From positions 914,209 to 978,208 of the forward strand of contig CP129475.1 of assembly GCA_030583785.1 (NCBI GenBank): a DNA stretch of 64,000 bases. Reading direction: 5' to 3'. Of the stretch, positions 7,163 to 25,662 are shown piece by piece. The position numbers and the translations under genes were made by a program. The notes beneath the pieces were generated by a model, which was given only the letters and a program-made list of their open reading frames with translations, was not told the DNA's origin and ran no database searches. This DNA comes from Candidatus Dojkabacteria bacterium (GTDB taxonomy: Bacteria; Patescibacteriota; Dojkabacteria; B142; OLB20). Each line of letters starts with the position of its first letter. The first letter of the stretch is position 1.

Positions 7163-7164
7163 TA

Positions 7165-8031
7165 ATGTCTGATGCTTTAATTGACAGAGATCCCATGCCT
7201 GATCCACACCCATTGCTACAATACGAAACTATACGGCCAGGTATTGAACAATATCGTCTCGATCTTCGTGTTCTCTATCCCGATAGAGCAAAAAGAGATG
7301 CATTTGAGGGCAAGTGGCAAAGATTTTATGATTCTGATTCAGCAAACAGGGATGTTTTTGGGAGAGAAGATGATGCAATTATTTATCTTTCCGAATCACT
7401 TATTCCTGAGAAAAAAGACGAAAGACCCCCGTTGTTAATGGTTTTTGGTAATCCTGCGCCACATTCTATTAAGGAGGGTATGTTTTTTTCATATGAAGGA
7501 AATGGCAGAGAACATCGTATTTGGAAAATATTCAGAGATGTCGGGATAGTCTCGTTTGAGTTAGACACATTGTTCGAGGATCCAAATGAGCGAAGGAAAC
7601 GGCAGTTACATTCTCTTGAATACCATTCCCCATTTAGGATTGGGATGATACCATTTTACGCGATGGCAACAACGCCAAGTGCAGCACCATGGACTGGAGT
7701 ATCTGGTCTTTATAGGCTATTTGGAACGCAGGCAATGCAGAACATTGCAATGGCCGAAAGAGAGAGGCTAGGACGCATAGTGAGGAACTTTATGTCAGAT
7801 GGTGGGCTTATTATCGCCTTTCAAAAAGATGCATACGAGAATCTTTCACATGCTGAAGCCCCAGCTTATGGGAGAGATTCTGCATTACAAAATGGTCTTA
7901 TTGCATATTACGATGGGAATCCAGATGTAATGGTTGCGGGATCGCCTCCCACCCGTTCACTTCATGGAGTTCAAGCGAAAAAAGCACTTGCAGGGATTGT
8001 AGTGAAGTTTTTTAAAAGGGATGGGATGTAG
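7165..8031 (+). CDS. UDG-superfamily, MUG/TDG-like DNA glycosylase homologue (divergent motif)
   Basis: LLMVFGNPAPHS...EHRIWKIFRDVGIV parallels E. coli Mug VFCGINPGLSS...ANRFWKVIYQAGF. The catalytic-motif position carries GNPAP instead of GINPG. Confidence 0.4.
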   Translation: MSDALIDRDPMPDPHPLLQYETIRPGIEQYRLDLRVLYPDRAKRDAFEGKWQRFYDSDSANRDVFGREDDAIIYLSESLIPEKKDERPPLLMVFGNPAPHSIKEGMFFSYEGNGREHRIWKIFRDVGIVSFELDTLFEDPNERRKRQLHSLEYHSPFRIGMIPFYAMATTPSAAPWTGVSGLYRLFGTQAMQNIAMAERERLGRIVRNFMSDGGLIIAFQKDAYENLSHAEAPAYGRDSALQNGLIAYYDGNPDVMVAGSPPTRSLHGVQAKKALAGIVVKFFKRDGM

Positions 8032-8247
8032 TTGGGGATTAAAAGATGGGGTGGAGAAACTCAACCTGCGTGAACTTTTAGAGCAAATAGATATTAAATC
8101 CCTTAATGGTATCGATAAAGTTCACGAGCAGTATGCACAATACGTAGCTGCCGACCTTGCAGGCGAGAAAGTGAAACTTATCGACTACCGTTTATAGCCT
8201 TCTACTTGAAAGTAAGGAGGATAGTAAATGAACTAATACAGTATTAT

Positions 8248-8276
8248 TTGAATGGTAGAGCTAGACAATGTATCAT
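8248..8276 (+). promoter_or_regulatory. Candidate sigma70-like promoter for mrr (TTGAAT - 17 bp - TATCAT)
   Basis: TTGAAT at 8248-8253 and TATCAT at 8271-8276 with a TG immediately upstream. It lies about 40 bp upstream of the mrr ATG. Confidence 0.3.
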
Positions 8277-8317
8277 GATGATAAGTATAGATAAAAATCG
8301 ACCCACGAACTAAAACT

Positions 8318-9157
8318 ATGGCGGTACCTAAATACGACGACCTCTTTCAACCATTACTAGATGCATTGCATCAACTAGGCGGGTCGGGTACGGTCGAAGA
8401 AATCAACGAAAAAGTAGCAGAAATGCTAAATCTCTCAGAAGACGATGTAAATGAAATTCACAAAGGCACTGCTACGAAACTTGCCTACCGTTCTGGTTGG
8501 TCAAAAAACTACCTAAAACGGTATGGCTTAATCGAAAATTCCGAGCGAGGCGTGTGGCGGTTAACACTTAAAGGTCAGCAGACCAAAGTTGTAGATAAGG
8601 CGGATGTCCGTAGATTTGTACAAAAGCTATCACGCAAACAGGTAAACGTTGCGGATGCTGCAAATGACGGTCTTGAGCCAAACGAAACAGAAACCACGTG
8701 GGAGGAAGCGTTAATCCAAAAGTTATTGGAAATATCACCTGAATCATTTGAGAAATTATGCCAACGCATTTTGCGCGAATCTGGATTTATCCAGGTCGAA
8801 GTCACTGGCAAAAGTGGTGACGGCGGCATTGATGGTAAAGGGATTTTGCGTTTGAACGGATTATTGAGCTTCCACATCATTTTTCAGTGCAAACGCTATT
8901 CTGGCGCAGTCAGTTCCAAAGAAATCAGAGATTTCCGCGGTGCAATGCAAGGTCGAGCAGACAAAGGCCTATTTTTGACTACTGGAACATTTACCCGTGA
9001 TGCCAAGCAGGAAGCTACACGTGATGGCGCGCCACCGATTGACCTTGTAGACGGTAATTTATTAGCCCAGAAGCTCAAAGAACTTAGACTGGGCGTTGAC
9101 GTCGAAGTCCAGGAAGAAGTTACGATTAATCCAGCATTTTTTGAACAGTACAGTTGA
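8318..9157 (+). CDS. mrr: Mrr-like type IV (modification-dependent) restriction endonuclease
   Basis: The N-terminal Mrr_N winged helix (PKYDDLFQPLLDAL...) is followed by a PD-(D/E)xK Mrr_cat core (GKSGDGGIDGKG...FQCKRY). Confidence 0.8.
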   Translation: MAVPKYDDLFQPLLDALHQLGGSGTVEEINEKVAEMLNLSEDDVNEIHKGTATKLAYRSGWSKNYLKRYGLIENSERGVWRLTLKGQQTKVVDKADVRRFVQKLSRKQVNVADAANDGLEPNETETTWEEALIQKLLEISPESFEKLCQRILRESGFIQVEVTGKSGDGGIDGKGILRLNGLLSFHIIFQCKRYSGAVSSKEIRDFRGAMQGRADKGLFLTTGTFTRDAKQEATRDGAPPIDLVDGNLLAQKLKELRLGVDVEVQEEVTINPAFFEQYS

Positions 9158-9333
9158 TGACCGACGACACATACCTAACAATCGAAGAAGTGGCAGAAAA
9201 GCTCAAAGTAGCCTACATCACTGTGTATAGGTGGGTAAGAACTGGTCAGCTAAAATCGGTTAAAGCTGGCAAGCAACATCGGATAAAGCAAACCGACCTA
9301 GATAATTTTTTAGAACGAAAAAATGGCGCTTAG
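9157..9333 (+). CDS. Small excisionase-family HTH DNA-binding protein (58 aa)
   Basis: The ATG at 9157 overlaps the mrr stop (ATGA). The product MTDDTYLTIEEVAEKLKVAYITVYRWVRTGQLKSVKAGKQHRIKQTDLDNFLERKNGA matches the excisionase-family HTH_17 pattern (LTxxEVAExLxVSxxTVYRWxxxGxLPAxKxGxxWRI). Its stop at 9331-9333 overlaps the start of the downstream RM gene by 11 nt. It is absent from the ORF track because it is under 60 aa. Confidence 0.55.
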   Translation: MTDDTYLTIEEVAEKLKVAYITVYRWVRTGQLKSVKAGKQHRIKQTDLDNFLERKNGA

Positions 9334-12031
9334 TTGGAATGAAATAAAAAAACGCGCCATAGAGTTCTCTAAATCGTGGGAAGGGGTCGAACGCGAGAAA
9401 GCAGAGGCACAAACCTTCTGGAATGAGTTCTTTGAGGTATTTGGACAAACTCGCAGGAAAGTCGCCATCTTAGAGCAGGAAGTTAAAAGACTAGATGAAT
9501 CCAAAGGCTATATTGACCTATTTTGGCCAAAGGTACTCTTGGCAGAGGCTAAATCCAAGGGCAAAGACCTGGTTAAAGCCAAAGAACAGGCGATTTCCTA
9601 CCTTCATGGCATCGAAGACAGTGAATTACCACAGTATATTTTGACCTCTGACTTTGATGCTATGTCCCTACTCGACCTTGAATCAGGTGAGTCGTGGCAG
9701 TTCAAAGTCGGGAAATTACACGAAAATATCAAACTATTTTCTTTTATTGCTGGCTATGCGAAAACTGACTTCAAGGAAGAGGACCCTGTAAACATAAAAG
9801 CTGCGGAATTAATGGGTAAATTACATGACAGCCTCACGGAAGCAGGTTATTCTGGACATACTTTGGAAGTTTTCCTGGTCAGAGTGCTATTTTGTTTATT
9901 TGCTGACGACACTGGCATTTTTGAAAAAGGTACTTTTTCTCAATACATTAGCAGCACCAAAGTTGACGGCACCGACGTTGGTCCCCAGCTTGCGCAGCTT
10001 TTCCAGTTGCTAGATACGCCAGAAGAAAAGCGGTTTAGAAACCTTGATGAAAATCTCGCTAGGTTCCCTTACGTTAACGGTAAGCTATTTGAGGAAGTCA
10101 TACCTATGGCTGGATTCGATAGCACCATGCGCGGGTCACTAATCGCCTGTTCACAGTTTGATTGGAGTCGTATATCACCTGCTGTGTTTGGTTCATTGTT
10201 CCAATCTGTAATGGACCAAAAAGCCCGCAGAAACCTCGGCGCGCACTATACCAGTGAATCAAACATTTTAAAGGTAATAAGGCCGCTTTTCTTGGATGAA
10301 CTGTGGCAAGAATTTGAGTTGGTAAAAAATAACAAACCAAAGCTAGCCCAGTTCCATGACAAAATTGCTGGCTTGAAATTTATGGACCCTGCCTGCGGTT
10401 GTGGTAACTTTTTGGTCATCACCTACCGAGAATTGCGCTTACTTGAGTTAGAGGTCGTTAAAAAGTTGGCTGGACATCAAAGGACCTTTGACATAACAAG
10501 CCTCGTTAAACTCAACGTAGACAGCTTTTACGGTATAGAAATTGAGGAATTCCCAGCCAGAATCGCTGAAGTAGCCATGTGGCTAGTTGACCACCAAATG
10601 AACGTCAGATTCTCAGAAGAACTTGGGCAGTATTTTGTTCGTTTGCCGTTAAAAAAATCTGCCAACATAATTCACGGCAACGCCCTTCAAATCGACTGGC
10701 AATCTATCGTAAAACCTTCTGAGCTGTCATACATACTAGGCAACCCACCTTTCGTCGGCAAACAAATGCGAAGCAGAGAACAAACTGAAGACCAGCTTAA
10801 AGTAATGGCAGGTATAAAAGGAGCAGGTGTGCTAGATTTCGTAGCTTGCTGGTATATAAAAGCGGCACAGTACATCCAAAATACTGCAATTAAAGTTGCA
10901 CTAGTATCCACAAATTCAATAACGCAGGGTGAACAGGTCGGAATTCTATGGAGCGAGCTATTTGCAAAGTATGGTATAAAAATCCACTTCGCCCACCGCA
11001 CATTCCAATGGAACAGCGAGGCCAGGGGTAAAGCCGCCGTACACGTCGTAATTATAGGTTTTGCTAACTTCGACGACACGACGAAATACATATTTGAATA
11101 TGACCACATTCAGTCAGAGCCACATAAAATTAAAGTCAAAAACATAAACCCCTATTTGGTTGAAGGTAAAGAGTTAACAGTTCCCCTTAGGCGTAATCCC
11201 ATTTGTGATGTACCACGCATGGATTATGGAAGTACACCAAGGGATTTTAACCATTTAGTTTTGTCTTCTGATGAAAAAGAGGCATTAATCAGTGCGGAAC
11301 CTTTGGCAAAAAGATTTATCCGCCCATTCATAGGTTCATTTGAGTTTATTAATAACGTCAAAAGATACTGTTTATGGCTTGAAAATGTAACACCAAGTGA
11401 GCTCAACCAACTCCCGCTTGTGAAAGCAAGGGTTGAATTGGTGCGCAAAGATAGAAATCTAAGTGAAAGAGCTGGAACTAAGAAAATGGCCGAATATCCA
11501 ACTCTATTCGCGGAAAACCGTCAGCCTGACACGGATTATCTAGTTGTACCTCTAGTATCGTCAGTTAATAGAACTTATGTGCCTATTGGTTTCATGGATA
11601 AAAGTACAGTTACAAATAACCAGGTTTCAATAGTTCCTGAAGCTGGATTGTTTCACTTCGCAGTCATACAATCCTTAATGCACATGACATGGATGAGGTA
11701 TATTGCAGGACGATTAAAAAGCGATTACAGATATTCAAATTCATTGGTATACAATAATTTCCCTTGGCCAGCCAGCATCACAGATGACCTAAAAAGTCGA
11801 ATTGAATTTAAAGCACAGGAAGTGCTTAATATTAGGGCAGATTTTAATGATTCGACACTTGGTGAATTATATAACTCTCTGACAATGCCAGCTAAACTGC
11901 TAAAAGCACATAAGGAATTAGACAAATTAGTCGACAAGGCATATCGCAAAGACACCTTTGGTGATGACCGCGAGCGTATTGAGTTTTTGTTTGAGCTGTA
12001 TGCTGGCTTAACGCAAGCCCCAATCCAATAG
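9323..12031 (+). CDS. MmeI-family type IIL restriction-modification enzyme (fused endonuclease + N6-adenine methyltransferase + TRD)
   Basis: The N-terminus MALSWNEIKKRAIEFSKSWEGVEREKAEAQTFWNEFFEVFG...IDLFWPKVLLAEAKSKGKDL matches the MmeI N-terminal PD-ExK nuclease. An NPPF motif (LGNPPFVGKQ) and an FxGxG SAM region (MDPACGCGNFLV) are present. The 902-aa size fits the family. Confidence 0.85.
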   Translation: MALSWNEIKKRAIEFSKSWEGVEREKAEAQTFWNEFFEVFGQTRRKVAILEQEVKRLDESKGYIDLFWPKVLLAEAKSKGKDLVKAKEQAISYLHGIEDSELPQYILTSDFDAMSLLDLESGESWQFKVGKLHENIKLFSFIAGYAKTDFKEEDPVNIKAAELMGKLHDSLTEAGYSGHTLEVFLVRVLFCLFADDTGIFEKGTFSQYISSTKVDGTDVGPQLAQLFQLLDTPEEKRFRNLDENLARFPYVNGKLFEEVIPMAGFDSTMRGSLIACSQFDWSRISPAVFGSLFQSVMDQKARRNLGAHYTSESNILKVIRPLFLDELWQEFELVKNNKPKLAQFHDKIAGLKFMDPACGCGNFLVITYRELRLLELEVVKKLAGHQRTFDITSLVKLNVDSFYGIEIEEFPARIAEVAMWLVDHQMNVRFSEELGQYFVRLPLKKSANIIHGNALQIDWQSIVKPSELSYILGNPPFVGKQMRSREQTEDQLKVMAGIKGAGVLDFVACWYIKAAQYIQNTAIKVALVSTNSITQGEQVGILWSELFAKYGIKIHFAHRTFQWNSEARGKAAVHVVIIGFANFDDTTKYIFEYDHIQSEPHKIKVKNINPYLVEGKELTVPLRRNPICDVPRMDYGSTPRDFNHLVLSSDEKEALISAEPLAKRFIRPFIGSFEFINNVKRYCLWLENVTPSELNQLPLVKARVELVRKDRNLSERAGTKKMAEYPTLFAENRQPDTDYLVVPLVSSVNRTYVPIGFMDKSTVTNNQVSIVPEAGLFHFAVIQSLMHMTWMRYIAGRLKSDYRYSNSLVYNNFPWPASITDDLKSRIEFKAQEVLNIRADFNDSTLGELYNSLTMPAKLLKAHKELDKLVDKAYRKDTFGDDRERIEFLFELYAGLTQAPIQ

Positions 12032-12079
12032 GCTTACTTATCTACATCTGTTCTCTCTGAAGGCTTTTAGCGTTTAACC

Positions 12080-12108
12080 TTGTGTTTTAGAATTTGTAGG
12101 TGTATAAT
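12080..12108 (+). promoter_or_regulatory. Candidate promoter of the higB operon (TTGTGT - 17 bp - TATAAT)
   Basis: -35 TTGTGT at 12080-12085 and a perfect -10 TATAAT at 12103-12108, about 40 bp upstream of the higB ATG. Confidence 0.45.
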
Positions 12109-12124
12109 TTCCCAAAATGGGAAA
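12108..12124. promoter_or_regulatory. Inverted repeat TTTCCCA-aaa-TGGGAAA overlapping the predicted transcription start; candidate antitoxin operator
   Basis: A perfect 7-bp inverted repeat with a 3-bp spacer sits immediately after the -10 element. Type II TA operons are typically autoregulated through such palindromes. Confidence 0.35.
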
Positions 12125-12150
12125 AGATAATCAATCATTAAAACTGAATA

Positions 12151-12438
12151 ATGAAACTAGTAGGAATGCCAATTTTAAGTGAGTTTAAATCGAAGCATGC
12201 GGATGTGAAGTCACCAATCGACTCATGGGTGCAAGAAGTAAAAGCGGCGCAATGGCAGAACACTCACGACGTAAAGGCAAGGTACTCATCGGCTGACTTC
12301 TTTAAAGGCAATCGCGTAGTAATTAACTTGAAGGGTAATAAATATAGACTACTTTTTCGAGTTAATTATCAGGTGAAAGTGGTACAGGTGGAGAAAGTCG
12401 GCACACATAATGAATACAATAAGTGGAATTTAAATTAG
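12151..12438 (+). CDS. higB: HigB toxin (RelE/ParE superfamily mRNA interferase)
   Basis: 95 aa; FKGNRVVINLKGNKYRLLFRVNYQVKVVQVEKVGTHNEY matches the HigB signature. It sits upstream of a HigA-like gene and overlaps it by 16 nt. Confidence 0.75.
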   Translation: MKLVGMPILSEFKSKHADVKSPIDSWVQEVKAAQWQNTHDVKARYSSADFFKGNRVVINLKGNKYRLLFRVNYQVKVVQVEKVGTHNEYNKWNLN

Positions 12439-13658
12439 CGAACAAAATTATGGCAATAAAAGTAATAAAAACAGATGAAGAATACCAGGAGGCATTGGAA
12501 CTCTTAACTGCCCTCATGGCAAAAGACATTGAACCTCATTCAAGCGAGGCCGAAACCCTTGAATTGCTTGCAGCACTCATCGAGGATTACGAAGAAACAA
12601 TGTGGGGCGAAAATATCCCTGACCCAATTGATGCATTGCAGTTTAGAATGGAACAACAAGGGCTAACAGCCGACGACCTTGTTCCTTATATTGGTAGTCG
12701 TAGCAAAGTATCTGAAGTCCTATCGCGAAAGAGGCCGTTAAGTCTGAATATGCTCAAATCACTGCAAACTGGATTAGGGATTCCTGCAAATGTTCTTTTA
12801 AATCAGCCGAGAACCCAGGAGTTTAAAGGGGTTGATATAGAGCAGTTCCCTTTGAAAGAAATGATAAAAAGGGGTTATATCCAGGGCAAAATTGACGAAG
12901 GGCTAGATTATTTAGAAAAAAAGGTAAATGAATTTCTAAGCCCAGTCTTGGATAGTACTCACATTTCGACACTATTAAGTAAGACCTCCTATATTCGCTC
13001 ATCTAGGCCAATGAGTAGGCATGCCTTAATTGCGTGGGTAGCTGAAGTAATGCGTAAAGCAGAACAGAAAGAAAATATCGTTGAATTTGATGTAGCCTAT
13101 TTGGACAAAAACCTTCTCAATCAAGTAATAAAATTCAGTTCGGAAGATGGTGGTATTAATAAAGCCATAAAATATATTGAAGAAAATGGCATCTCAGTTG
13201 TCGTTGAACCCCATCTGCCTAAAACATATTTGGATGGTGCGGCTATTATGATTGATGGTAAAAACCCAGTAATAGGTTTAACCATTCGACATGACCGACT
13301 CGACAATTTTTGGTTTACCCTATTACATGAGTTATCTCATATCGTTTTGCATTACGATGAAGGAGTCCATCTATTCTATGACGACCTAGACACAATCGAC
13401 AGCACTAATCCAAAAGAAAAAGAAGCTGATGATTTAGCTATTAATACAATGATACCTTTAGACAAATGGAAAGTCAGTCCAGCTAGCATATTACCTTCTC
13501 CCGATGCAGCTAAACTGCTCGCAAACCAATTAGGGATACATATATCAATTGTTGCGGGACGAATGAGATACGAAAGAAAGCAGTACCAATTCCTAAATGA
13601 ACTAATTGGAAAAGGTGAAGTGCGTAAATATTTTCCAGAGGTGAAATGGGAGGTATGA
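12423..13658 (+). CDS. higA: HigA-like antitoxin (XRE HTH) fused to an ImmA/IrrE-family (COG2856, DUF955) HEXXH metallopeptidase domain
   Basis: The N-terminal ~135 aa align with HigA (EEYQEALELLTALM...IGSRSKVSEVLSRKRPLSLNMLKSLQTGLGIPANVLL). The C-terminal ~270 aa carry the HELSHIVLH zinc-peptidase motif. The start may be the internal Met at 12450. Confidence 0.7.
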   Translation: MEFKLANKIMAIKVIKTDEEYQEALELLTALMAKDIEPHSSEAETLELLAALIEDYEETMWGENIPDPIDALQFRMEQQGLTADDLVPYIGSRSKVSEVLSRKRPLSLNMLKSLQTGLGIPANVLLNQPRTQEFKGVDIEQFPLKEMIKRGYIQGKIDEGLDYLEKKVNEFLSPVLDSTHISTLLSKTSYIRSSRPMSRHALIAWVAEVMRKAEQKENIVEFDVAYLDKNLLNQVIKFSSEDGGINKAIKYIEENGISVVVEPHLPKTYLDGAAIMIDGKNPVIGLTIRHDRLDNFWFTLLHELSHIVLHYDEGVHLFYDDLDTIDSTNPKEKEADDLAINTMIPLDKWKVSPASILPSPDAAKLLANQLGIHISIVAGRMRYERKQYQFLNELIGKGEVRKYFPEVKWEV

Positions 13659-13659
13659 A

Positions 13660-14736
13660 ATGGAACATAATCAGAAATACATGCCAATACTACGATGGAA
13701 AAAAGCTGAGAGAGATGCATTAAAGTCGTTATCGGACGACCAAAAGAAAAACATCGTGCCGCTGTTTGAAATGGTTCCTAAAAGGATAACTGACCCCAAG
13801 AACAAGGACAACAAGTTACCAATGCCACCTAAACAGAATCTCGGCAATTGCATTGCATTCATACATAAAGAATTGACTGATATGAAAGTGCTATTGGACG
13901 TTACACATGTATATCCAAAGAAAGCAGAAGCGTTTGATGAAATGAGCATACCGACTACCTTATTTGGTAACAACCTTGTCCCAGTATTAAATTTGAATGA
14001 CATCAGAGCAGAGAACTTTAGCACAAATGTAAAAACCTTTTTTCGCAATCAAGGTATATGTCTAAGAGTAAAGTATAAGGAGATAGATGATAGTTTTTGG
14101 AATAGCGTAGACAACGAATTAACGGGCCTTGGCCTGACCAGACAGGATGTTGATTTTGTCATGGATTATGGGATTGCAAGCGTGAACCAAAAGGATGAAA
14201 TGCACAAGATAGTCAGTGATACCGACAAGACCACGGGATGGCGTAGCTATTTCTTTGCTAGTGGAGCTTTTCCTAAAGATTTACAAAAGATTACGCCTGG
14301 GAAAAAAGAGGAACTCGCACGAATCGACTGGACAAATTGGACTGACCTACTTAATCAAAACCCAGAACTACGATTACCGGGATTTAGCGACTACACGATT
14401 CAATATGCGGAGTATCACGAACCACCTGAAAAGGCTTTCCCAAGCTACAGCATAAGGTATACAGCACCAAATAAGTGGATTATTATGCGTGGACAAGGGT
14501 CAAATGCCCAAAATAGCGCTGGAGATAAACAATACTACGCGCATTCGGTCCTTTTAGTCATGGAAAGCGATTTCGCAGGTGCGAGTTGCTGTGAAAGCGA
14601 TAAAGACATCATCGCCCTAAGCCAAAATCCTGATGGCAAAATGGGAACACCCCAAAGCTGGATAAGAGCTGGGATAAGACATCACATTGTAGTTACGTTA
14701 AAGGGAGTAGAAAGCGTTTTGTCTTCTGGTAACTAG
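13660..14736 (+). CDS. Uncharacterised 358-aa protein, translationally coupled to higA (possibly Beta-protein/sce7725-like family)
   Basis: The ATG at 13660 lies 1 nt after the higA stop. N-terminus MEHNQKYMPILRWKKAERDALKSL. No catalytic motif was recognised. The family guess is from memory only. Confidence 0.45.
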   Translation: MEHNQKYMPILRWKKAERDALKSLSDDQKKNIVPLFEMVPKRITDPKNKDNKLPMPPKQNLGNCIAFIHKELTDMKVLLDVTHVYPKKAEAFDEMSIPTTLFGNNLVPVLNLNDIRAENFSTNVKTFFRNQGICLRVKYKEIDDSFWNSVDNELTGLGLTRQDVDFVMDYGIASVNQKDEMHKIVSDTDKTTGWRSYFFASGAFPKDLQKITPGKKEELARIDWTNWTDLLNQNPELRLPGFSDYTIQYAEYHEPPEKAFPSYSIRYTAPNKWIIMRGQGSNAQNSAGDKQYYAHSVLLVMESDFAGASCCESDKDIIALSQNPDGKMGTPQSWIRAGIRHHIVVTLKGVESVLSSGN

Positions 14737-15288
14737 ACACTCTCTTACAGAGGCTTTAAGCTCTCTTTCTGTAAAATTCTTCACCAACACTTCACAGATT
14801 TCCTTTTTATTTTTGCTATTCATGCCGTGAGCCAGATTTCTTCTTTTTAGGATATCAAGTGCTTCCGTTTTCCAGAGCATATTAGCAATAGTTAGCAAAT
14901 CCTGTGCTGGGTTTTCTTCTGCATTGCGCACACTAATAAGTTTAGGTTCATATTCGCTGTCTACTACTTTAGCTATAGTTATACCCCACCAATCTGGAAT
15001 CATTCTCAGTGCCTCAACCACATGACTTTTGCCAACCACAAGCGTAACTTTGTCGAAGATTAAGTTGTATGTGTTGGCCTGTGCAGAAAGTCTAAAAAGG
15101 TTATCCAAATCACCTTTTAGTTCATAACAGTGCATTATTCCATTAATAACTGCTATATCTGCTCTTACACTTCCATTGGAAATAGAAAACTCTGGAATAA
15201 TTGCCGTGTCAGGACCATTATATTTATTCTGAAGTTCCGACATTAACACCTTTCTTATTGTTTTGTCGCGAGTAATAAAATTATTCAT
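14698..15288 (-). CDS. sce7726-family-like protein (uncharacterised; usually paired with an sce7725-family gene)
   Basis: VRADIAVINGIMHCYELKGDLDNLFRLSAQANTYNLIFDKVTLVVGKSHVVEALRMIPDWWGI matches the remembered sce7726 signature (vRvDiAvvNG..hGyEiKsd.D.L.RL..Q...Y....D.vtLVvg..H...a....PdWWG). It converges on the upstream gene and overlaps it by 39 nt. Confidence 0.45.
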   Translation of the reverse strand: MNNFITRDKTIRKVLMSELQNKYNGPDTAIIPEFSISNGSVRADIAVINGIMHCYELKGDLDNLFRLSAQANTYNLIFDKVTLVVGKSHVVEALRMIPDWWGITIAKVVDSEYEPKLISVRNAEENPAQDLLTIANMLWKTEALDILKRRNLAHGMNSKNKKEICEVLVKNFTERELKASVRECLVTRRQNAFYSL

Positions 15289-15386
15289 ATAGCAGTTTTA
15301 CTTACAGTATAAATTTTTGCGATAATGACATCAACAATTTAAGCGCCTAACCCCATAAATTTCGGTTTATGGGTATGGACATAAGA

Positions 15387-15521
15387 CCTTGCGAGTATAG
15401 ACGGTTCCATCCGTCCAGATTTGCTCGCAAGGCCTTCAGGGGAAACTCTGATGCTGGATTGGGTGGGACCATTTTTGTGGTTTCCCAGTCCAGCATCGCT
15501 AAACGTATTTTATTTTTTAGC
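15387..15521 (+). promoter_or_regulatory. Highly structured leader: three consecutive hairpins immediately upstream of the ATG at 15531
   Basis: Hairpin 1: ccttgcgag (15387-15395) pairs with ctcgcaagg (15424-15432), with a nested gacgg/ccgtc stem. Hairpin 2: gatgctggattggg (15450-15463) pairs with cccagtccagcatc (15484-15497). Hairpin 3: gctaaa (15498-15503) pairs with tttagc (15516-15521) across a U-rich loop. Confidence 0.35.
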
Positions 15522-15530
15522 AACTGGACT

Positions 15531-16394
15531 ATGCGAATTCCATTTCCCAAAAGCAAGCCTGCAATTGCGGTAATAATAATCGTTGGTATTTTAGTACTCT
15601 GCTCAATCTGCTGCGTGTCAGCTATTCTTATTGCTCCTTCATTGCCTACAACACTTAAACTGACGTCTTCGCCGACGACTTCGTGGGACTCAAAGGAACC
15701 AACCCAGACAGTTAAATTCGATTGTACAAATGCTCAAAAAATCACGCTAAACGGCTCTCAGTTAAACGAAAAGGATAAAAATGAACTTTGTATTGGCAAT
15801 GGTTATAAACTCGATTTGCAGAATGGTCAGAACACTTTTACTTTTGTTGCTAGCCATGAGCGTGGTGACGTTGTGACAGTAGAATTAAAAATCAGTTTTG
15901 ACAAGAAAGCCTATGAGGATAGGTTGGCCGCCGAAGAAAAACAACGGCAAGAAGAGGAAGCTAAACGTAAGCAAAAAGAAGCCGATGACAAGGCAAAAGC
16001 CGAAGCTGAGGCTAACAAACCCAAAGTCGGTGACTCTCTTTTGGGGCCGAGTTACGAAGATATTAAAGCGGAGTATGAAAAGCAAAATAAACTTTCGAGT
16101 TACAAGGGTATGCAATATTTAGAGAGTTTAAAAGGTACCAAGATTGTCTGGGTGGCAGAAATAGGCGATGTCGACGAAGAATCGTTTGGAGATGATTTAT
16201 ACATCTCCTTGCTACTTTCGACTGGCATAGTTCAAAATAAACTAGCTTTTGTCGATAATCCCAAGCCCGAATACCTCAATTTGAATATGAAAACAGTAGT
16301 TAAGGTCACAGGCACGATAAAAGAGGTCAACACAAATTTTTTAGGACAAACAGTCTACATTAATGGTGACGCGACTTTCGAGGTTATCAACTAA
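15531..16394 (+). CDS. Membrane-anchored protein with a Lys/Glu-rich coiled-coil segment (hypothetical)
   Basis: Start set at the internal Met (MRIPFPKSKPAIAVIIIVGILVLCS TM helix). The central region reads KKAYEDRLAAEEKQRQEEEAKRKQKEADDKAKAEAEANK. The listed ORF start at 15369 spans the hairpin region. Confidence 0.45.
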   Translation: MRIPFPKSKPAIAVIIIVGILVLCSICCVSAILIAPSLPTTLKLTSSPTTSWDSKEPTQTVKFDCTNAQKITLNGSQLNEKDKNELCIGNGYKLDLQNGQNTFTFVASHERGDVVTVELKISFDKKAYEDRLAAEEKQRQEEEAKRKQKEADDKAKAEAEANKPKVGDSLLGPSYEDIKAEYEKQNKLSSYKGMQYLESLKGTKIVWVAEIGDVDEESFGDDLYISLLLSTGIVQNKLAFVDNPKPEYLNLNMKTVVKVTGTIKEVNTNFLGQTVYINGDATFEVIN

Positions 16395-16458
16395 CTACGT
16401 TTTATCTTAAATTGAACAAACGTGTGGAACGCCATGTGAGCAGCGGCTATAATGTGCT

Positions 16459-16800
16459 ATGGCTAGACCAACTAAACTCGACCAAATAACAGTCAAAAAA
16501 CTCGAAGAGGCATTTGCCGTAGGAGCAACTGTACCAGAAGCCTGTTTTAATGCGGGTATTAGTAAACAGACATACTACAACTGGACGGGAGAAAACCCTG
16601 AGTTATTGGACCGTTTTGAAGCATTGCAACAATCACCGATTTTGAGGGCTAGGAAGGCGGTATATGAGGGATTGGCAAATGACCCACATTTCGCATTAAA
16701 GTTCCTTGAAAGGAAGCTCAAGGGCGAATTTGGAATAAATCCAAACATAGCCGACACTGGTCACGAAATAAATATTGTCATTAGGAGGAAGCAAAATTAA
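16459..16800 (+). CDS. Phage terminase small-subunit-like HTH protein
   Basis: 113 aa; MARPTKLDQITVKKLEEAFAVGATVPEACFNAGISKQTYYNW...ENPELLDRFEALQ...KFLERK resembles phage TerS-like HTH proteins (PTKYTPEL...ICEAxGISxxTxYxWxxxNPEFxxxxxxAR...WxLERR). Confidence 0.45.
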   Translation: MARPTKLDQITVKKLEEAFAVGATVPEACFNAGISKQTYYNWTGENPELLDRFEALQQSPILRARKAVYEGLANDPHFALKFLERKLKGEFGINPNIADTGHEINIVIRRKQN

Positions 16801-16804
16801 ATAA

Positions 16805-17743
16805 ATGGAAAAGCCCGACATATTAGTATTTCGTGAGAAACGCTGGTTCCAACAATTTATTGGCAAAGAGTATGTTATCTACCACCGCCCTTTAAGCAAA
16901 GGGCAATCCGAATTGCACAGAGAGCTGACAGCTAGCCATGCAATTATGAAATCTCGGCAGTCAGAGGACGGGGAAAAGGAAAAATTTGTTATCTACGAAA
17001 TATTCCCGCATGAATTCCATCAATACTGCCAAGCCGAAATCGACAAACTTAGTGAGTGTAGAAAATCACAGGCCATTCAGACAAAAGAATTATTAGACCT
17101 GCTTGCCGCTGACTTTATCCAACACCAAAACACTGCGCCACTGGTCAACGAAGAGATTCTAGGGAGTTACAAGGCTAACCCTAAATTCGCGGCGGATTCA
17201 CCTAGCAATAGCCGCCATCGATTGAAGTTTAACGCGACCATGCGTCAATTGGAGCTTCAAGGGTATTTTAGGATTACTAACTTCGAGCTAGACGTATTCG
17301 CGACAGAAAAACCACTATCGCCTGAAAAAGCCCATGAACTAGAAAAGAAACCCGACCACAAAACAAAAACCGACTATCTACCTGCCGCTTACAGCAACTA
17401 CAAAATTAAATATCTTAGAGAATTTTCCGAATACGTCAGAAATGGCTATGGGAAAGAAACTGTGGAAATAGAGTTTGACCCTGAAAGTGGAGAAATCTGG
17501 TATGACGGCAAAAGTCGAAGTGTCGTCGGCAAGACTAGCCATTCCTACAAAGTTATAGCCGAATTTGCACTAGGCAAAAGCAGTGTTGAGATTAAGCAAT
17601 TATTTCCTGTTCAAAACGATAGTGATTTTAGACATGAGCTTGCGAAAGAGGTACGCAGGAAGATGGGTTTGTCAGCACAGCAGTTGAGAAATAAAGATGG
17701 AAACTTTATTTTGCAAAATGTTAGCGTAGCACCTAAAAAGTAA
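16805..17743 (+). CDS. Hypothetical protein (312 aa)
   Basis: ORF lying 5 nt after the TerS-like gene. No motif was recognised. Confidence 0.45.
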   Translation: MEKPDILVFREKRWFQQFIGKEYVIYHRPLSKGQSELHRELTASHAIMKSRQSEDGEKEKFVIYEIFPHEFHQYCQAEIDKLSECRKSQAIQTKELLDLLAADFIQHQNTAPLVNEEILGSYKANPKFAADSPSNSRHRLKFNATMRQLELQGYFRITNFELDVFATEKPLSPEKAHELEKKPDHKTKTDYLPAAYSNYKIKYLREFSEYVRNGYGKETVEIEFDPESGEIWYDGKSRSVVGKTSHSYKVIAEFALGKSSVEIKQLFPVQNDSDFRHELAKEVRRKMGLSAQQLRNKDGNFILQNVSVAPKK

Positions 17744-17986
17744 TTAGTTCTATCCCTACTTTTTCCCGCTTTTTTCCTAAGAATCCTACTTGATAGTTGG
17801 GATAGTGATTATGTGGAAAACACAGATATAAACTACAACGGCGAACCAATACGAAACCTACCAGCACTAGTTAAGGCTGTCCAGGTGGAAACCGCTAAAC
17901 GCTCGAGGACCAAACCCACCAAGGCTCTTTCAAAAAAACATAAATATCGAATGAAAGACAAGCTCGGAGAATATATAATGTAGTTA

Positions 17987-19627
17987 ATGAATGATGAGAA
18001 CCCACTTGAACAAGCACAGTACAAAGAGGCATTACTAAAATACGCCCACGCTTACACGCTCAAAAAGCAGAAAAATAAAAGCGAGAAACAACTTTCCGAT
18101 TCTAAACGCTACTATGTTATCTACGCCCGCAAATCCACCGAGGATGATAAACGACAAGTGCAATCCATAGAGGACCAAATCGAACAATGTCAGAAGTTTG
18201 CTAAAAGGGAGAATTTAGAGGTAGTTGATATTGTCCAAGAAGACAAAAGTGCAAAAACCGCTGGTAGACGTCCGAAATTTGCGGCAATGTTGGAACGGTT
18301 AAGGAAAGGTGATTTATACAACAGTATCCTGGCATGGCATCCAGACCGTTTAGCGCGCAATATGAAGGAAAGTGGAGAGATACTGGACCTGCTCGATAAC
18401 GACATTATTGTCGACCTTAAATTTCCATCTTACTCATTCAACAATGATGCTGCGGGCAAAATGACTCTAAGTATTTTGTTCGCGATGGCAAAGGAATTTT
18501 CCGACAAGTTATCAGAGGATACGAAGCGCGGTATTCGTAAAAAGATTCGCGAAGGTAAATATTCAGGCACAGGCAAACGTGGTTATATGGTGAACAAGCA
18601 CGAATATTTTAGACCCGATGACAGCAACTTCGCAATATATCAAAAGGCATGGCAGGAATACAGTAGTGGCAAAACGCAAAGTGAAATTATCCGCGGCTTA
18701 AAGGAACAAGGTGAGAAAATTTCCACAAATGGTATGTCAGAATACTTCCAAGACCCTTTTGTAGCTGGCATTTATACTTACGGTGAGCAGGTAGTTGACC
18801 TCGAAAAAGTAGACCCTAAATTTACGCCTATGATAGGTCCCAAGGAGTTTTTAATGGCACAAAAGATAAACAGGCCTAATCCACGCGGTTGGTGCATGAA
18901 CGATGAATTCAAACCACTAAATGACCTAGTCTTGTGTGCTGATTGTGGCAACCCAATGATTGCTGGTTTGAGTGAAGGTAATCGTTATCGATACCTAAAC
19001 CTGACTTGTAGCAATCGGGCTTGTAAGGAGAAAAGGCGAGAGAAAAAGATTAAACCAGTATCCAACACCATACGCGCATTCGAGATAATCGACTTTGCCC
19101 GTAGAGTGTTTGATGAATTGCTAAATATTGACCAAGCTACTTACGACAAGGCCAAGAAAAAGTATTTCACCGAACGCAGTGCGGTCATTAAAGGATTGGT
19201 TGCAGAGTCTGCAAAGTTGAAAGCTAGCAAATCCAAACTCGAAACTAAGTCCTCCAAACTAAGCGACCAGATACTCGAAAAGCACAGTGAAGATGTCAAA
19301 CAAAAGTTCTCAGAGGAATTTACAAGCGTGCTTGCGCAGATTAGAAATATTGACGCAAGTTTAGTTACCTTGGAACAAAAAAAGCGGGATTTGGAATTTG
19401 AAATCGAAGATGAATTTCCTGACTTCAAGACGTTTCTGAACTTCTTTGAAAACATATCGGCCACAATAGAATCCACCGATAATGCCTATCTTGTCGACCA
19501 ACTAGTGAAATTGGTATTTCTGAACCTAACTGTAAGTGAGAAAAAGGTTGTTAAATATACCCTTCGCGAGCCTTTCAAAACCTATGAGAACCTGAATTTC
19601 CTTGTTGGGGTGGTTGACAGGACTTGA
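17987..19627 (+). CDS. Large serine recombinase (integrase)
   Basis: Resolvase catalytic domain YVIYARKSTEDDKRQVQSIEDQ with the nucleophile Ser. The 546-aa length and a Cys-rich recombinase/zinc-ribbon region (CADCGNPM...CSNRAC) fit a large serine recombinase. Its 3' end overlaps the tRNA-His 3' end. Confidence 0.85.
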   Translation: MNDENPLEQAQYKEALLKYAHAYTLKKQKNKSEKQLSDSKRYYVIYARKSTEDDKRQVQSIEDQIEQCQKFAKRENLEVVDIVQEDKSAKTAGRRPKFAAMLERLRKGDLYNSILAWHPDRLARNMKESGEILDLLDNDIIVDLKFPSYSFNNDAAGKMTLSILFAMAKEFSDKLSEDTKRGIRKKIREGKYSGTGKRGYMVNKHEYFRPDDSNFAIYQKAWQEYSSGKTQSEIIRGLKEQGEKISTNGMSEYFQDPFVAGIYTYGEQVVDLEKVDPKFTPMIGPKEFLMAQKINRPNPRGWCMNDEFKPLNDLVLCADCGNPMIAGLSEGNRYRYLNLTCSNRACKEKRREKKIKPVSNTIRAFEIIDFARRVFDELLNIDQATYDKAKKKYFTERSAVIKGLVAESAKLKASKSKLETKSSKLSDQILEKHSEDVKQKFSEEFTSVLAQIRNIDASLVTLEQKKRDLEFEIEDEFPDFKTFLNFFENISATIESTDNAYLVDQLVKLVFLNLTVSEKKVVKYTLREPFKTYENLNFLVGVVDRT

Positions 19628-19682
19628 ACCTGCGGCATCCAGTGCCACAAACTGGCGCTCTACCGACTGAGCTACAACCACC
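19605..19682 (-). tRNA. tRNA-His (anticodon GTG), CCA encoded
   Basis: Reverse complement GGTGGTTGTAGCTCAGTCGGTAGAGCGCCAGTTTGTGGCACTGGATGCCGCAGGTTCAAGTCCTGTCAACCACCCCA forms a cloverleaf. The anticodon loop is TTGTGGC (GTG), and the usual His-specific extra 5' G / C73 arrangement is present. Confidence 0.85.
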
Positions 19683-19829
19683 ATAATACTCCGTCAATTA
19701 TAGCAAAAGATCCGCAATCCTTGCTAAATTTCTGCGATGTAATATTAATCTGCAACCATCTTCTCAGCTAGGTTTGAACTGCCAAGTAATATTAGTCTAA
19801 TATGGTGTCATACTCTTCAACATGTAAAT

Positions 19830-21260
19830 ATGGATAATCAAAAAGCAGATATTGGATTTATTGGACTGGCTGTAATGGGACAGAATCTGGTGCAAAATAT
19901 CGCCTCTAAAGGCTTCTCTGTCGCTGTCTATAATAGAACTGCTGCTATAACCAGAGAGTATATCGAAACTGTCGATTCTGAGAATATTTCTCCTGCTTAT
20001 TCCTTATCTGATTTATGTAATTCGATAAAATCACCAAAAAGGATCATGCTTATGGTCAAAGCAGGAGAAGCTGTTGACGAAGTTATCGATCAATTACTGC
20101 CAAATCTTCACAAAGGAGATGCATTGTTAGATATGGGTAATTCCAATTACAAAGATACGCAAAGACGAACGCACCAATTAACCGAAAAGGGGATTCTCTA
20201 TTCTGGTGTAGGTGTTTCAGGCGGAGAAGAAGGTGCCTTAAATGGTCCGAGTATTATGTTTGGAGGCTCTAAAGAGTTGTTTACTGAAGTTGAAGCGCTT
20301 ATAAAAAGTATTTCTGCTATGGATTTTCAGGGAGCTGCTACACTTACCTATGTTGGGCCGGACGGAGCAGGTCACTATGCCAAGATGGTGCATAACGGAA
20401 TCGAATATGCCATGATGCAGGCGATTTCTGAGGCGTATTTTCTGCTTAGAGATGTTTTCCACAAAGATCCCTCAGAAATCGCCGCAGTATTCGCTAATCT
20501 AAATGAAGGTCCTCTCAATTCCTATCTCATACAAATAACTGCTGATGTGCTTAACAAGCGAGACGATCTTACCGAAGGATTCTTAATAGATAAGATTCTC
20601 GATGTCGCGGAACAAAAAGGAACCGGCTCTTGGGTTTCTATCTCTGCCCTAGAGAATGGAACTGCACTAAATATTCTCACCGAAGCGGTCTTTGCACGCA
20701 GTCTGTCTGCAGACAAACAAACAAGGATCAAACTTGCTGAATTATCAACCAAGAACGAGCTTGAAAAAAATTCACGAGACAAAAACTTGCCAGATGACAA
20801 GCAACTGCATAAACTCGTCGAGGATTCGTTGCTTGTTTCGTTTTATTTGGCCTTTATCCAAGGATTTCACTTGTTAGCTAAGGCTGAAGCAGAAAACAAC
20901 TGGCAGATTAATCTTTCTGAACTGACAAGAATCTGGCAAGGGGGGTGCATCATTAGGGCAGAGCTTCTTAAAGACCTAAAAAGATATACAGAGACAAAGG
21001 CTGTACTTATTGAAAATGAAGAATTGTTTAAGATGATTAACGGTAAAATTCCGTCACTTCGAGAACTGGCACTAATGGCGACATCGCATGCTTTGCCCTT
21101 GCCGGTAATGCAAAACAGTTTGCTTTATTTCGACAGCATGATAAATCCCAATTTACCTACCAATTTAATCCAGGGTCTGCGAGATTATTTTGGAGCGCAT
21201 ACATATAAACGAACTGACAGAGAAGGAATCTTCCATACAAACTGGGACGATCAGAACTAA
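19830..21260 (+). CDS. gnd: 6-phosphogluconate dehydrogenase (decarboxylating)
   Basis: The N-terminal Rossmann segment IGFIGLAVMGQNLVQNIASKGFSVAVYNRT is present, with the Gnd catalytic and C-terminal domains over the full 476-aa length. Confidence 0.9.
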   Translation: MDNQKADIGFIGLAVMGQNLVQNIASKGFSVAVYNRTAAITREYIETVDSENISPAYSLSDLCNSIKSPKRIMLMVKAGEAVDEVIDQLLPNLHKGDALLDMGNSNYKDTQRRTHQLTEKGILYSGVGVSGGEEGALNGPSIMFGGSKELFTEVEALIKSISAMDFQGAATLTYVGPDGAGHYAKMVHNGIEYAMMQAISEAYFLLRDVFHKDPSEIAAVFANLNEGPLNSYLIQITADVLNKRDDLTEGFLIDKILDVAEQKGTGSWVSISALENGTALNILTEAVFARSLSADKQTRIKLAELSTKNELEKNSRDKNLPDDKQLHKLVEDSLLVSFYLAFIQGFHLLAKAEAENNWQINLSELTRIWQGGCIIRAELLKDLKRYTETKAVLIENEELFKMINGKIPSLRELALMATSHALPLPVMQNSLLYFDSMINPNLPTNLIQGLRDYFGAHTYKRTDREGIFHTNWDDQN

Positions 21261-21282
21261 AGGCTGCGGATATGTTCAAGCA
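21255..21282. repeat. Left copy of a 28-bp perfect direct repeat (aactaaaggctgcggatatgttcaagca) flanking the CRISPR-Cas cassette
   Basis: Identical 28-mer at 21255-21282 and 29750-29777. The left copy contains the gnd codon AAC plus stop TAA and abuts the truncated terminal CRISPR repeat. Confidence 0.75.
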
Positions 21283-23611
21283 ACAGTAGAAATCTCTTAT
21301 AAGGAATAAGGTTATTCATAAGCTGAAAAAGGTCGCAGAAATCTACAACAGTAGAAACCTCTTATAAGGAATAAGGAGGAGAGGTATCAGTCGCTCAAGT
21401 CATCTACAACAGTAGAAATCTCTTATAAGGAATAAGAATCTGGCAGTTGCGTTAGACAATACGATCTACAACAGTAGAAATCTCTTATAAGGAATAAGAA
21501 TAAATTATTAATTACCCACCATGAGAATCTACAACAGTAGAAATCTCTTATAAGGAATAAGTTTTAATTATTAGCGAATAAGTATGGATCTACAACAGTA
21601 GAAATCTCTTATAAGGAATAAGCTAGTAAATTTCCTGATATATTTTACAGCATCTACAACAGTAGAAATCTCTTATAAGGAATAAGTCATATTTATAGAA
21701 TACACACTTATTATCTACAACAGTAGAAATCTCTTATAAGGAATAAGCTCGTAACAGATATGTTGACAGCTCTAATCTACAACAGTAGAAATCTCTTATA
21801 AGGAATAAGTCCATAAATCAAATTACTAACATCTCTATCTACAACAGTAGAAATCTCTTATAAGGAATAAGATGTTGTTCGCCATAGTTTTCTAAAATCT
21901 ACAACAGTAGAAATCTCTTATAAGGAATAAGAGTAGACAAGTTTCGTGACGATGCAGAGTATCTACAACAGTAGAAATCTCTTATAAGGAATAAGTGCAA
22001 ACTTCAATTTTCACTTCAACATTTATCTACAACAGTAGAAATCTCTTATAAGGAATAAGATATATATATATTGAGGTTTATTCTTTAAATCTACAACAGT
22101 AGAAATCTCTTATAAGGAATAAGTACTTGGATTTTTATAGTTAACGCATTTATCTACAACAGTAGAAATCTCTTATAAGGAATAAGTGATGAGATAGCAA
22201 TGTTTGCAGGAATTATCTACAACAGTAGAAATCTCTTATAAGGAATAAGGCTACATTCTTATTCATTCTCAGAATTATCTACAACAGTAGAAATCTCTTA
22301 TAAGGAATAAGAAATCAAATAGTTTTTGGTATCTGTTTATCTACAACAGTAGAAATCTCTTATAAGGAATAAGTTCGCGACGATGCAGAGGCAAAAATTA
22401 TCTACAACAGTAGAAATCTCTTATAAGGAATAAGACAAGTATATCAGACCGACGGGACAAAATCTACAACAGTAGAAATCTCTTATAAGGAATAAGATTC
22501 TGCCAGTACCTTCTCAATTAATCCATCTACAACAGTAGAAATCTCTTATAAGGAATAAGACTGGAGAGTTTACTGGACAGGTTAATCTACAACAGTAGAA
22601 ATCTCTTATAAGGAATAAGATCACAGACACAGTTTCGCTTTAGTATCTACAACAGTAGAAATCTCTTATAAGGAATAAGATCACTGTATATAGAGCTGTT
22701 ACTGAATCTACAACAGTAGAAATCTCTTATAAGGAATAAGCGTATTTATACACCGACGGTTCCTTGGATCTACAACAGTAGAAATCTCTTATAAGGAATA
22801 AGTGCATGGTTTTTTCCTAAATAACTAAAATCTACAACAGTAGAAATCTCTTATAAGGAATAAGATTGGAAGATGTTTCAGCAAGATTTCGAATCTACAA
22901 CAGTAGAAATCTCTTATAAGGAATAAGGCTATTGGTAAAAAAGCTTAATCATAATATCTACAACAGTAGAAATCTCTTATAAGGAATAAGTTAGGCGTGT
23001 GTTATCCACATTTGAAATCTACAACAGTAGAAATCTCTTATAAGGAATAAGAGCAATAGACTGGGGAGGATATTCCTAATCTACAACAGTAGAAATCTCT
23101 TATAAGGAATAAGCATTATTTCTATCAATTTCAATGTTTATATCTACAACAGTAGAAATCTCTTATAAGGAATAAGATTCTGTTGCCGTCTTCAAGTTCG
23201 GCAAATCTACAACAGTAGAAATCTCTTATAAGGAATAAGCTTATTATTATTTAGCCATTGAATTTGATCTACAACAGTAGAAATCTCTTATAAGGAATAA
23301 GTGGAATATATTTTATCCTCTTATATGATCTACAACAGTAGAAATCTCTTATAAGGAATAAGAATGGATATATTAATTAATAACTAACGGATCTACAACA
23401 GTAGAAATCTCTTATAAGGAATAAGAGAAATAAAAGAGGGAGCAATCTTAATCTACAACAGTAGAAATCTCTTATAAGGAATAAGTTAGAGTTTATACGA
23501 AGTTTGCACATCGAATCTACAACAGTAGAAATCTCTTATAAGGAATAAGTCATACTAGTCTTGTTAATCCTAACAAATCTACAACAGTAGAAATCTCTTA
23601 TAAGGAATAAG
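21281..23611 (-). CRISPR. Type V-A CRISPR array: 38 repeats (one truncated terminal, 37 full) of 35 nt, 37 spacers of 26-29 nt
   Basis: Plus-strand repeat is ATCTACAACAGTAGAAATCTCTTATAAGGAATAAG. Its reverse complement ends ...AGAUUUCUACUGUUGUAGAU, the Cas12a crRNA 5' handle and pseudoknot. The leader and cas genes lie on the high-coordinate side, so transcription is on the minus strand. The distal repeat (21339-21373) carries one SNP, and the terminal repeat (21281-21310) lacks 5 nt. Confidence 0.95.
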
Positions 23612-25589: not shown

Positions 25590-25662
25590 ACAGATATTAT
25601 ACTATAAGACACTATTATTCCGAAGCCTATAGTTGATATGTTTTTATGGAACTATTTCTGAA

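Follow-up and report, generated by a model that had tools for sequence, protein, structure and literature searches.

Positions 12151-15288 of a 64,000-nucleotide (nt) stretch of a Candidatus Dojkabacteria genome (contig CP129475.1, positions 914,209 to 978,208 of the forward strand), here called the window, hold four genes that probably form one anti-phage cassette of the PD-lambda-2 type, both in identity and in the outline of its action. These are a HigB-like gene (A), a gene for a helix-turn-helix (HTH) protein fused to an ImmA/IrrE-type peptidase (B), a beta-family gene (C, or beta) and, on the opposite strand, a gene of the sce7726/Phage_P4_cII family (D, or cII). A sequence-only reading of the window had singled out the last two as an uncharacterised module coupled to higBA and a candidate novel defence system. 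That novelty is lost, as PADLOC recognises the first three genes as PD-Lambda-2_A, B and C, and satellite phage P4 already has the convergent beta/cII pair (PMC9519451, PMC9122126). By profile matching, the 358-amino-acid (aa) gene and the upstream 'higBA' are an already validated PD-lambda-2 system and not a new one, and annotation pipelines already name both the beta and the cII proteins. The candidate is to be re-filed as PD-lambda-2, sharing beta/cII with P4 gop-beta-cII, and its host range includes bacteria of the candidate phyla radiation (CPR) with genomes of about 1 Mb.

The first three genes are contiguous and co-directional on the + strand. Gene A matches Pfam HigB_toxin (PF09907; E-value (E) 9e-27) and PADLOC PD-Lambda-2_A (E 1.5e-38; residues 1-93, 94 profile positions). 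Gene B matches PD-Lambda-2_B with E 1.7e-142, residues 10-406 of its 411-aa open reading frame (ORF) covering positions 1-398 of the 402 in the profile; the ORF as listed begins with GTG at 12423, and the profile alignment favours the ATG at 12450, giving 402 aa. Its further matches are to Pfam Peptidase_M78, to PHROG transcriptional regulators on residues 1-132 and to PADLOC capP (E 4.4e-07). The HExxH motif (H293, E294, H297) is invariant among the family, and identity to the homologue of Escherichia coli strain C is 41%. Beta matches Pfam Beta_protein (PF14350) with E 4.5e-51 over residues 7-344, and PADLOC PD-Lambda-2_C with E 1.7e-31 and 1.4e-28. The 196-aa cII protein, of which a Candidatus Dojkabacteria metagenome-assembled genome (MAG) has an annotated identical copy, is a clear member of NCBIfam sce7726_fam (NF033832; E 3.2e-49, 167.4 bits against a cutoff of 70, residues 7-189) and matches PADLOC 'cll', the cII of P4 gop-beta-cII, with E 3.5e-28; PF26915 (Phage_P4_cII) is annotated on its homologues. 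The sce7726 signature noticed in the sequence-only reading was therefore sound. The sce7725-type partner that it had expected was not found: the 358-aa protein has no match among the NCBIfam models at E ≤ 0.01, so that by that model it is not of the sce7725 family, and it belongs to Pfam Beta_protein instead.

PD-lambda-2 emerged from a functional selection carried out in E. coli (Vassallo et al. 2022, Nat Microbiol; PMC9519451) and comprises a HigB-like protein, a HigA-like HTH fused to a peptidase, and a third protein 'related to a P4 phage antitoxin' (PMC9519451). In the E. coli system, B is toxic alone, A neutralises B, and C is needed for defence against lambda-vir, though not for toxin neutralisation; the phenotype, measured for the ECOR42 system, is abortive infection (PMC9519451). 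All three proteins are encoded in the window as well, in that order and on one strand, and the three PADLOC profiles are matched over their full length. It differs from PD-lambda-2 in that the latter is described as three genes, whereas the window, like nearly all of the relatives compared below, adds a convergent, overlapping cII/sce7726 gene. Its beta is only 23% identical to E. coli beta, and its host is a CPR bacterium.

The P4 gop-beta-cII unit, tested as a whole, gave protection from both lambda and P1 (Rousset et al. 2022; PMC9122126), and the phage accessory gene orf184 triggers its toxicity (bioRxiv 10.1101/2023.04.06.535777). In P4, the toxin Gop is neutralised by beta, again an experiment on homologues of the window genes. 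The P4 RefSeq record places gop(+), beta(+), cII(-) and int in this order and annotates cII as 'sce7726 family protein' and beta as 'beta family protein'. P4 and the window share the convergent beta(+)/cII(-) pair adjoining a recombinase gene, and both betas fall into Pfam Beta_protein. The two betas are 23% identical over 194 aa (BLASTP, E 8e-07), with the P4-type PADLOC 'beta' profile aligning to residues 5-38 of the window protein only (E 3.7e-06). The two cII proteins are 25% identical (BLASTP, E 2e-15) and keep the E, D and ExK residues, P4 cII being longer (264 aa against 196 aa). Where P4 has gop, the window has the HigB-like A and the peptidase B; a phmmer search of all ORFs of window positions 7001-21000 gave no Gop homologue at E ≤ 1e-3, nor was there a PADLOC gop match. 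In P4, beta and cII are separated by a 27-nt gap with an annotated terminator, as opposed to the overlap in the window. A P4 mutant in the cII terminator was reportedly temperature-sensitive, which was put down to impaired beta expression; if true, interference by convergent transcription would have a forerunner in P4. A literature search with sce7726, PF14350 and gop-beta-cII found no mechanistic study of the beta or cII/sce7726 family.

ImmA/IrrE peptidases and Xre-type repressors form protease/repressor switches, as in ImmA/ImmR of ICEBs1, IrrE/DdrO, and CapP/CapH of CBASS. Gene B contains both of these domains, HTH and M78. Unlike in those switches, the two are fused in a protein whose homologue is itself toxic, and gene B is teamed with a HigB-like, a predicted TIM-barrel and a predicted nuclease-fold protein. 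The name higA, under which it had first been read, does not suit it well. Gene A does match HigB_toxin and gene B does start with an Xre-type HTH, as HigA does, but gene B encodes about 400 aa with an M78 peptidase and an intact HExxH, not a small HTH-only antitoxin, and the roles are swapped in the E. coli PD-lambda-2 homologue, where B is toxic and the HigB-like A rescues (PMC9519451). The HTH of gene B (residues 4-132, 12450-12850) shows 48% identity to a protein named 'transcriptional regulator' that many Shiga toxin (Stx)-converting phages (BP-4795, ST2-8624 and others) encode in their immunity region; these relatives have no peptidase half. A tblastn search of phage records with gene B gave nothing beyond such HTH-domain relatives in Stx phages.

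The ORF list and the sequence bear out the two genes first noticed, their borders (Table 1) and their 39-nt convergent overlap at 14698-14736, as well as the tight coupling of the 358-aa gene to the gene upstream. Gene B ends with TGA at 13656-13658 and the ATG of beta follows 1 nt later, with a Shine-Dalgarno sequence inside the end of gene B. The public call of the same beta protein (P0001, 351 aa) begins at Met8 (13681); the start at 13660 is favoured because of the Shine-Dalgarno sequence and because the identical 1-nt stop-to-start spacing is called in three homologous loci. At the other end, the TAG of beta occupies 14734-14736 and the TAA of cII is seen as TTA on the + strand at 14698-14700. 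Judged by their family matches to Beta_protein and sce7726_fam, both ATG-started ORFs are real genes and not chance ORFs, and the overlap is no artefact of ORF extension, since it includes 14725-14727, which encode R188 of cII, a residue invariant in the family. A possible operon promoter has a perfect -10 hexamer 43 nt upstream of gene A and a weak -35, which matches at 3/6 positions and for that reason keeps the site off the consensus-scan list. A second promoter-like site upstream of cII (9/12 matches) is weak evidence, because such sites are no more frequent in the region than in shuffled sequence. With a promoter of this kind, cII would have its own transcription, directed towards the A-B-C operon; a terminator scan found no terminator-like site between beta and cII.

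Conservation of the arrangement was assessed in 80 loci, taken from contigs of one genome per species from many phyla and retrieved by peptide patterns of this beta subfamily, with the A, B, beta and cII profiles run on all ORFs. The beta alignment used for the locus scan and for structure was a narrow set without P4, Rac, Agrobacterium and Rhodococcus. A convergent cII overlaps the 3' end of beta in 77 of the 80, a figure that describes this beta subfamily and not all beta proteins, since the loci were retrieved with its patterns. All four genes stand in the same order in 71 of the 80 on the available DNA. Among the three loci where cII was undetected, one is truncated at its start (L052), one has a disrupted beta near the contig end (L069) and one appears to be a genuine absence (L077). 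Nine public metagenome or MAG loci have the same four-gene layout, each in a different flanking context; homologues with this layout come from Patescibacteria, Actinomycetota and other metagenomes, and some adjoin conjugation genes. The co-occurrence check proposed with the sequence-only reading thus gave a conserved gene pair, in the genomic loci as well as in 36 of 38 viral ones. The four-gene layout is the rule among relatives, and this prevalent natural form appears undescribed in the searchable literature; the three-gene definition of PD-lambda-2 in annotation tools appears to miss the fourth gene of 77 of the 80 relatives. In wider searches, the cII family had 3,884 representatives (E ≤ 1e-10) in a set of 1.84 billion clusters made at 50% identity, and the gene B family, by profile search, at least 7804 clusters at 90% identity. 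The cassette was also low in G+C (0.33-0.42) in all eight MAG loci measured (L019, L028, L081, L091 and others), which include Gammaproteobacteria and Thermodesulfobacteriota hosts, as would fit an AT-rich module that has spread horizontally.

The halves of the cassette also occur apart. A and B are found alone on Paraburkholderia, Acinetobacter and Limnohabitans plasmids; beta and cII stand by themselves on one plasmid each of E. coli and Rhodococcus, in prophage Rac-SA53, and in 36 of 38 IMG/VR viral contigs, where neither the A nor the B profile gave a match. These findings would suit two independent neighbours, a HigB/Xre-peptidase toxin-antitoxin pair (12151-13658) and a self-contained beta/cII module (13660-15288), brought together by clustering in the island. 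Such independence is nevertheless decidedly unlikely. Defence by E. coli PD-lambda-2 requires gene C, and beta therefore works with A and B (PMC9519451). In addition, the 1-nt spacing between the B stop and the beta start, with the Shine-Dalgarno sequence inside B, is repeated in homologues, and the order of the four genes is kept across many phyla in the 71 loci.

Other genes can stand ahead of beta/cII. In E. coli chromosomes these are a GNAT gene and a short M78 peptidase gene; in three viral loci, a stand-alone M78 gene lies directly upstream of beta; a split, divergent HTH and M78 pair also occurs; and Plesiomonas and Agrobacterium have unrelated genes. From this distribution we infer that the beta/cII pair is a conserved core and that the toxin/peptidase genes in front are interchangeable, so that two separately named defence systems would share one core. 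The sharing of a beta/cII core with swappable front ends by PD-lambda-2 and gop-beta-cII appears undescribed in the searchable literature. A stronger version is possible, if rather unlikely, in which beta (TIM barrel) and cII (PD-(D/E)xK) would be an ancient interlocked core, the sensing and effector heart of a superfamily uniting PD-lambda-2, gop-beta-cII and many variants not yet described, with swappable front ends (gop, HigB with Xre-M78, GNAT with M78, M78, or none) and with convergent transcription setting the beta-to-cII ratio. A common upstream partner in the viral loci was considered and rejected, the upstream ORFs being heterogeneous and, bar the three M78 genes, looking like ordinary phage regulators. 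Two E. coli loci of the GNAT variant (L099 and L101; NZ_CP027447 and NZ_CP068041; 3400-6515) encode a GNAT N-acetyltransferase, a 282-aa ImmA/IrrE peptidase, beta and sce7726, with an 18-nt overlap. A relaxase or a degraded integrase lies beside them, and this combination is not named in the searchable literature.

The 39-nt overlap of the window has counterparts of various length. In the 77 genomic loci it measures 26-191 nt, with a mode of 50 nt (41 loci), and all 77 lengths are congruent to 2 modulo 3 (L019-L098; window equivalent 14677-14736). Most viral loci in which beta and cII are each single and intact follow the same rule; one has a 66-nt overlap (L123) and two have none (L117 and L139). 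Further exceptions are the window, with 39 nt, and the E. coli GNAT-type loci, with 18 nt. In the window the frames lie codon opposite codon, the only such phase among the loci of the 80-locus comparison. Within the 50-nt class, mean information is 1.22 bits/nt in the overlap as against 0.80 in the beta-only and 0.71 in the cII-only flanks, and the usual relaxation at third positions is mostly gone (1.06, where beta-only coding has 0.40). In this class the consensus, TTAACCACCAT..., places the cII stop within the beta Ile-Asn codons of a conserved NHH motif, and the cII tail ...LNGG is coded opposite the beta His-His. In the window beta, Arg (GIRHH) replaces the near-invariant Asn N340, and the overlap is shorter and in another phase. 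The overlap is a dual-coded region, and its conservation makes an unusually clear case of two genes locked at the DNA level. This interlocking of beta and cII appears undescribed in the searchable literature. No Rfam family matched inside the cassette.

Structure models add to the identities. Beta is modelled as a TIM barrel, with the eight-fold beta/alpha repeat of such barrels, and cII with a restriction-endonuclease-like alpha-beta-beta-beta-alpha-beta core of the PD-(D/E)xK kind. The cII residues E33, D44, E56 and K58 are invariant in 40 sequences and lie on predicted strands 1-3, with D44 on strand 2 and E56-x-K58 on strand 3, in agreement with the PD-(D/E)xK placement. A QxxxY motif, typical of RecB/Cas4-type PD-(D/E)xK members, is likewise present and invariant. 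Structural neighbours of the cII model are 3dnx/SPO1766, the nuclease domain of Can2, NucS and type II restriction enzymes; in contrast to these nucleases, cII carries a PxWWG motif and, at its C-terminus, a helical domain specific to its family. The predicted nuclease fold and signature of cII appear undescribed in the searchable literature, and the predicted folds together with the invariant putative catalytic residues point to specific point mutants.

Several points weigh against the reading of 12151-15288 as one four-gene PD-lambda-2-type cassette. The published PD-lambda-2 clone spans 228989-232396 of an ECOR42 contig, with its genes at 229385-232009 and protein accessions descending from A to C. 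If this order puts C at the low-coordinate end, 396 bp remain beyond its stop, and a convergent cII of about 200 aa could not be intact in the clone: its promoter and first 50-60 codons, with the putative catalytic residues, would be missing. The HigB, ImmA/IrrE and beta locus of E. coli strain C shows no cII in any frame within 4.5 kb. It follows from the clone and from this locus that cII is dispensable for the sole PD-lambda-2 phenotype measured. In P4 lacking beta, killing is reportedly due to gop, which would speak against cII as a toxin checked by beta. The nuclease assignment of cII rests on a predicted fold and a motif: searches of the beta and cII family profiles against PDB sequences gave noise only (E ≥ 0.2), a Pfam collection without PF26915 gave no family consistently matched by 40 cII homologues at E ≤ 1, and an MmcB-like match was seen in 1 of the 40 (E 0.034, weak). 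As to the antisense coupling that the sequence-only reading thought possible, neither strand of the overlap folds better as RNA than shuffled sequence (z -0.95 and -0.60). Beta is 23% identical to both the E. coli and the P4 protein and carries R for N340, the conservation figures are those of one beta subfamily, and the experiments behind the account are those on homologues.

The clone, the strain C locus and the RNA folding of the overlap, no better than shuffled, would accord with a cII that is a mobile-element gene outside defence, such as a lysogeny regulator, as its P4 name implies, or a DNA-repair-type nuclease, co-inherited through the interlocked 3' ends, with the overlap as compaction. 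So would the occurrence of cII-family genes without beta in a Paenibacillus Rep_trans rolling-circle replicon and in Staphylococcus and Bacillus phages (71 phage records match cII, 3 match beta), and the best structural match of the model, the uncharacterised protein 3dnx, whose family we take to be MmcB-like DNA repair. A passenger cII is all the same unlikely, given its near-universal co-occurrence across phyla and front-end genes, the protection shown for gop-beta-cII as a whole unit (PMC9122126), and the invariance of its putative catalytic residues across the family, a sign that an enzymatic function has been under selection. Among relatives of the window cassette, the three-gene form of E. 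coli looks like the exception. It was found in 4 of 5426 genomes (strain C and three others), these loci being reached by low-stringency blastn with a gammaproteobacterial cassette. The gene B profile search had no E. coli entry among the best 120 of at least 7804 clusters. In the strain C locus (L100, NZ_CP029371; 6109-7626), the convergent gene downstream of beta is of the SIR2 family, with a tyrosine integrase after it.

For the four-gene cassette a mechanism can be sketched. In uninfected cells, A would restrain the peptidase of B, whose HTH would probably autoregulate the operon. Beta would serve as the adaptor or sensor common to all variants, linking infection to the release of toxicity. 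As an accessory nuclease, cII could be a second effector or could process phage DNA that feeds the signal, and its expression may be inversely tied to that of the operon through convergent transcription over the 3' ends that the genes share; we hold any specific role for cII with low confidence. ImmA/IrrE-type peptidases respond to DNA-damage-type signals (ImmA/ImmR, IrrE/DdrO, CapP/CapH), and the repeated pairing of beta/cII with peptidases of this type is suggestive, without being evidence.

The cassette might instead serve mainly for addiction or stabilisation of the island, or of other mobile elements, and not against phages. This is very unlikely: two homologous systems protected from phage when cloned off their elements (PMC9519451, PMC9122126), a phage gene triggers the toxicity of gop-beta-cII (bioRxiv 10.1101/2023.04.06.535777), and the window neighbours are Mrr and a type IIG restriction-modification (RM) enzyme. 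Against this stand an island with a serine recombinase and tRNA-His at its border, relatives that adjoin conjugation genes, integrases and relaxases, the toxin-antitoxin behaviour of A and B in E. coli (PMC9519451), and database names of gene B homologues such as 'plasmid stabilization protein'. Defence and addiction roles are compatible, and the alternatives considered here are not mutually exclusive with parts of the account given for the cassette.

Table 1. Features of the cassette and its surroundings (positions in the window).
Feature	Position	Strand	Basis or remark
Gene A, 95-aa HigB-like (RelE-fold) protein, PD-Lambda-2_A	12151..12438	+	Pfam and PADLOC
Gene B, 402-aa Xre-type HTH fused to ImmA/IrrE (M78) zinc metallopeptidase, PD-Lambda-2_B	12450..13658	+	Profiles
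Gene C, 358-aa beta-family protein (P4 beta / PD-Lambda-2_C)	13660..14736	+	Predicted TIM barrel
Gene D, 196-aa sce7726 / Phage_P4_cII family protein	14698..15288	-	Predicted PD-(D/E)xK nuclease fold and C-terminal helical domain
Shine-Dalgarno GGAGG	13649-13653	+	Sequence read; inside gene B end, 6 nt before beta start codon
Possible operon promoter, -10 TATAAT, -35 TTGTGT (12080-12085), 17-nt spacer	12103..12108 (-10)	+	Inferred from sequence read
Promoter-like site TTGATG-17 nt-TATACT	15306..15334	-	Consensus scan; 18 nt upstream of cII start
Mrr-like type IV restriction enzyme	8318-9157		Family profiles
HTH_17 excisionase-like gene	9154-9333		
MmeI-type IIG RM enzyme	9323-12031		Family profiles
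Large serine recombinase	17987-19627		3' end overlaps tRNA-His
tRNA-His	19606-19681	-	
gnd (housekeeping)	19830		After island

The surroundings look like an integrative defence island of roughly 11 kb (8318-19681). A defence island with the genes between an RM system and an integrase, as first read, holds as to the island, its Mrr and MmeI-type enzymes and a recombinase gene by tRNA-His; what had been read as an 'integrase' is of the large serine recombinase kind. No direct repeat of the tRNA-His end, as an attachment site would give, was found in 1-21000 to mark the left border.

Just beyond the start of cII, an Rfam LOOT RNA (RF03000, a small RNA motif of CPR phyla) is matched at 15344-15472 (+) with 49.9 bits against a gathering score of 46.4. 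In 3 of the 14 CPR loci scanned, a LOOT RNA lies 1-2 kb from the four-gene cassette (L027, 305-424; L003, 2187-2300; L035, 8066-8192), and integrative islands of CPR bacteria may characteristically carry it. The ORF at 15369-16394 (+; 341 aa) overlaps the LOOT RNA match with its first 35 or so codons; translation probably begins at Met55 (15531, MRIPFPKSKPAIAVIIIVGILVLC..., hydrophobic and membrane-like). The encoded protein, which has a Lys/Glu-rich stretch, matched no family in Pfam, NCBIfam, PADLOC or PHROGs. A 113-aa HTH protein at 16459-16800 (+) matches the PHROG 'terminase small subunit' (E 2.6e-18) and, weakly, PADLOC DrmC, which suggests that the island descended from a phage or satellite. 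G+C content is about 0.40-0.43 across the island and 0.36-0.42 elsewhere, falling to 0.31-0.35 at 21000-30000.

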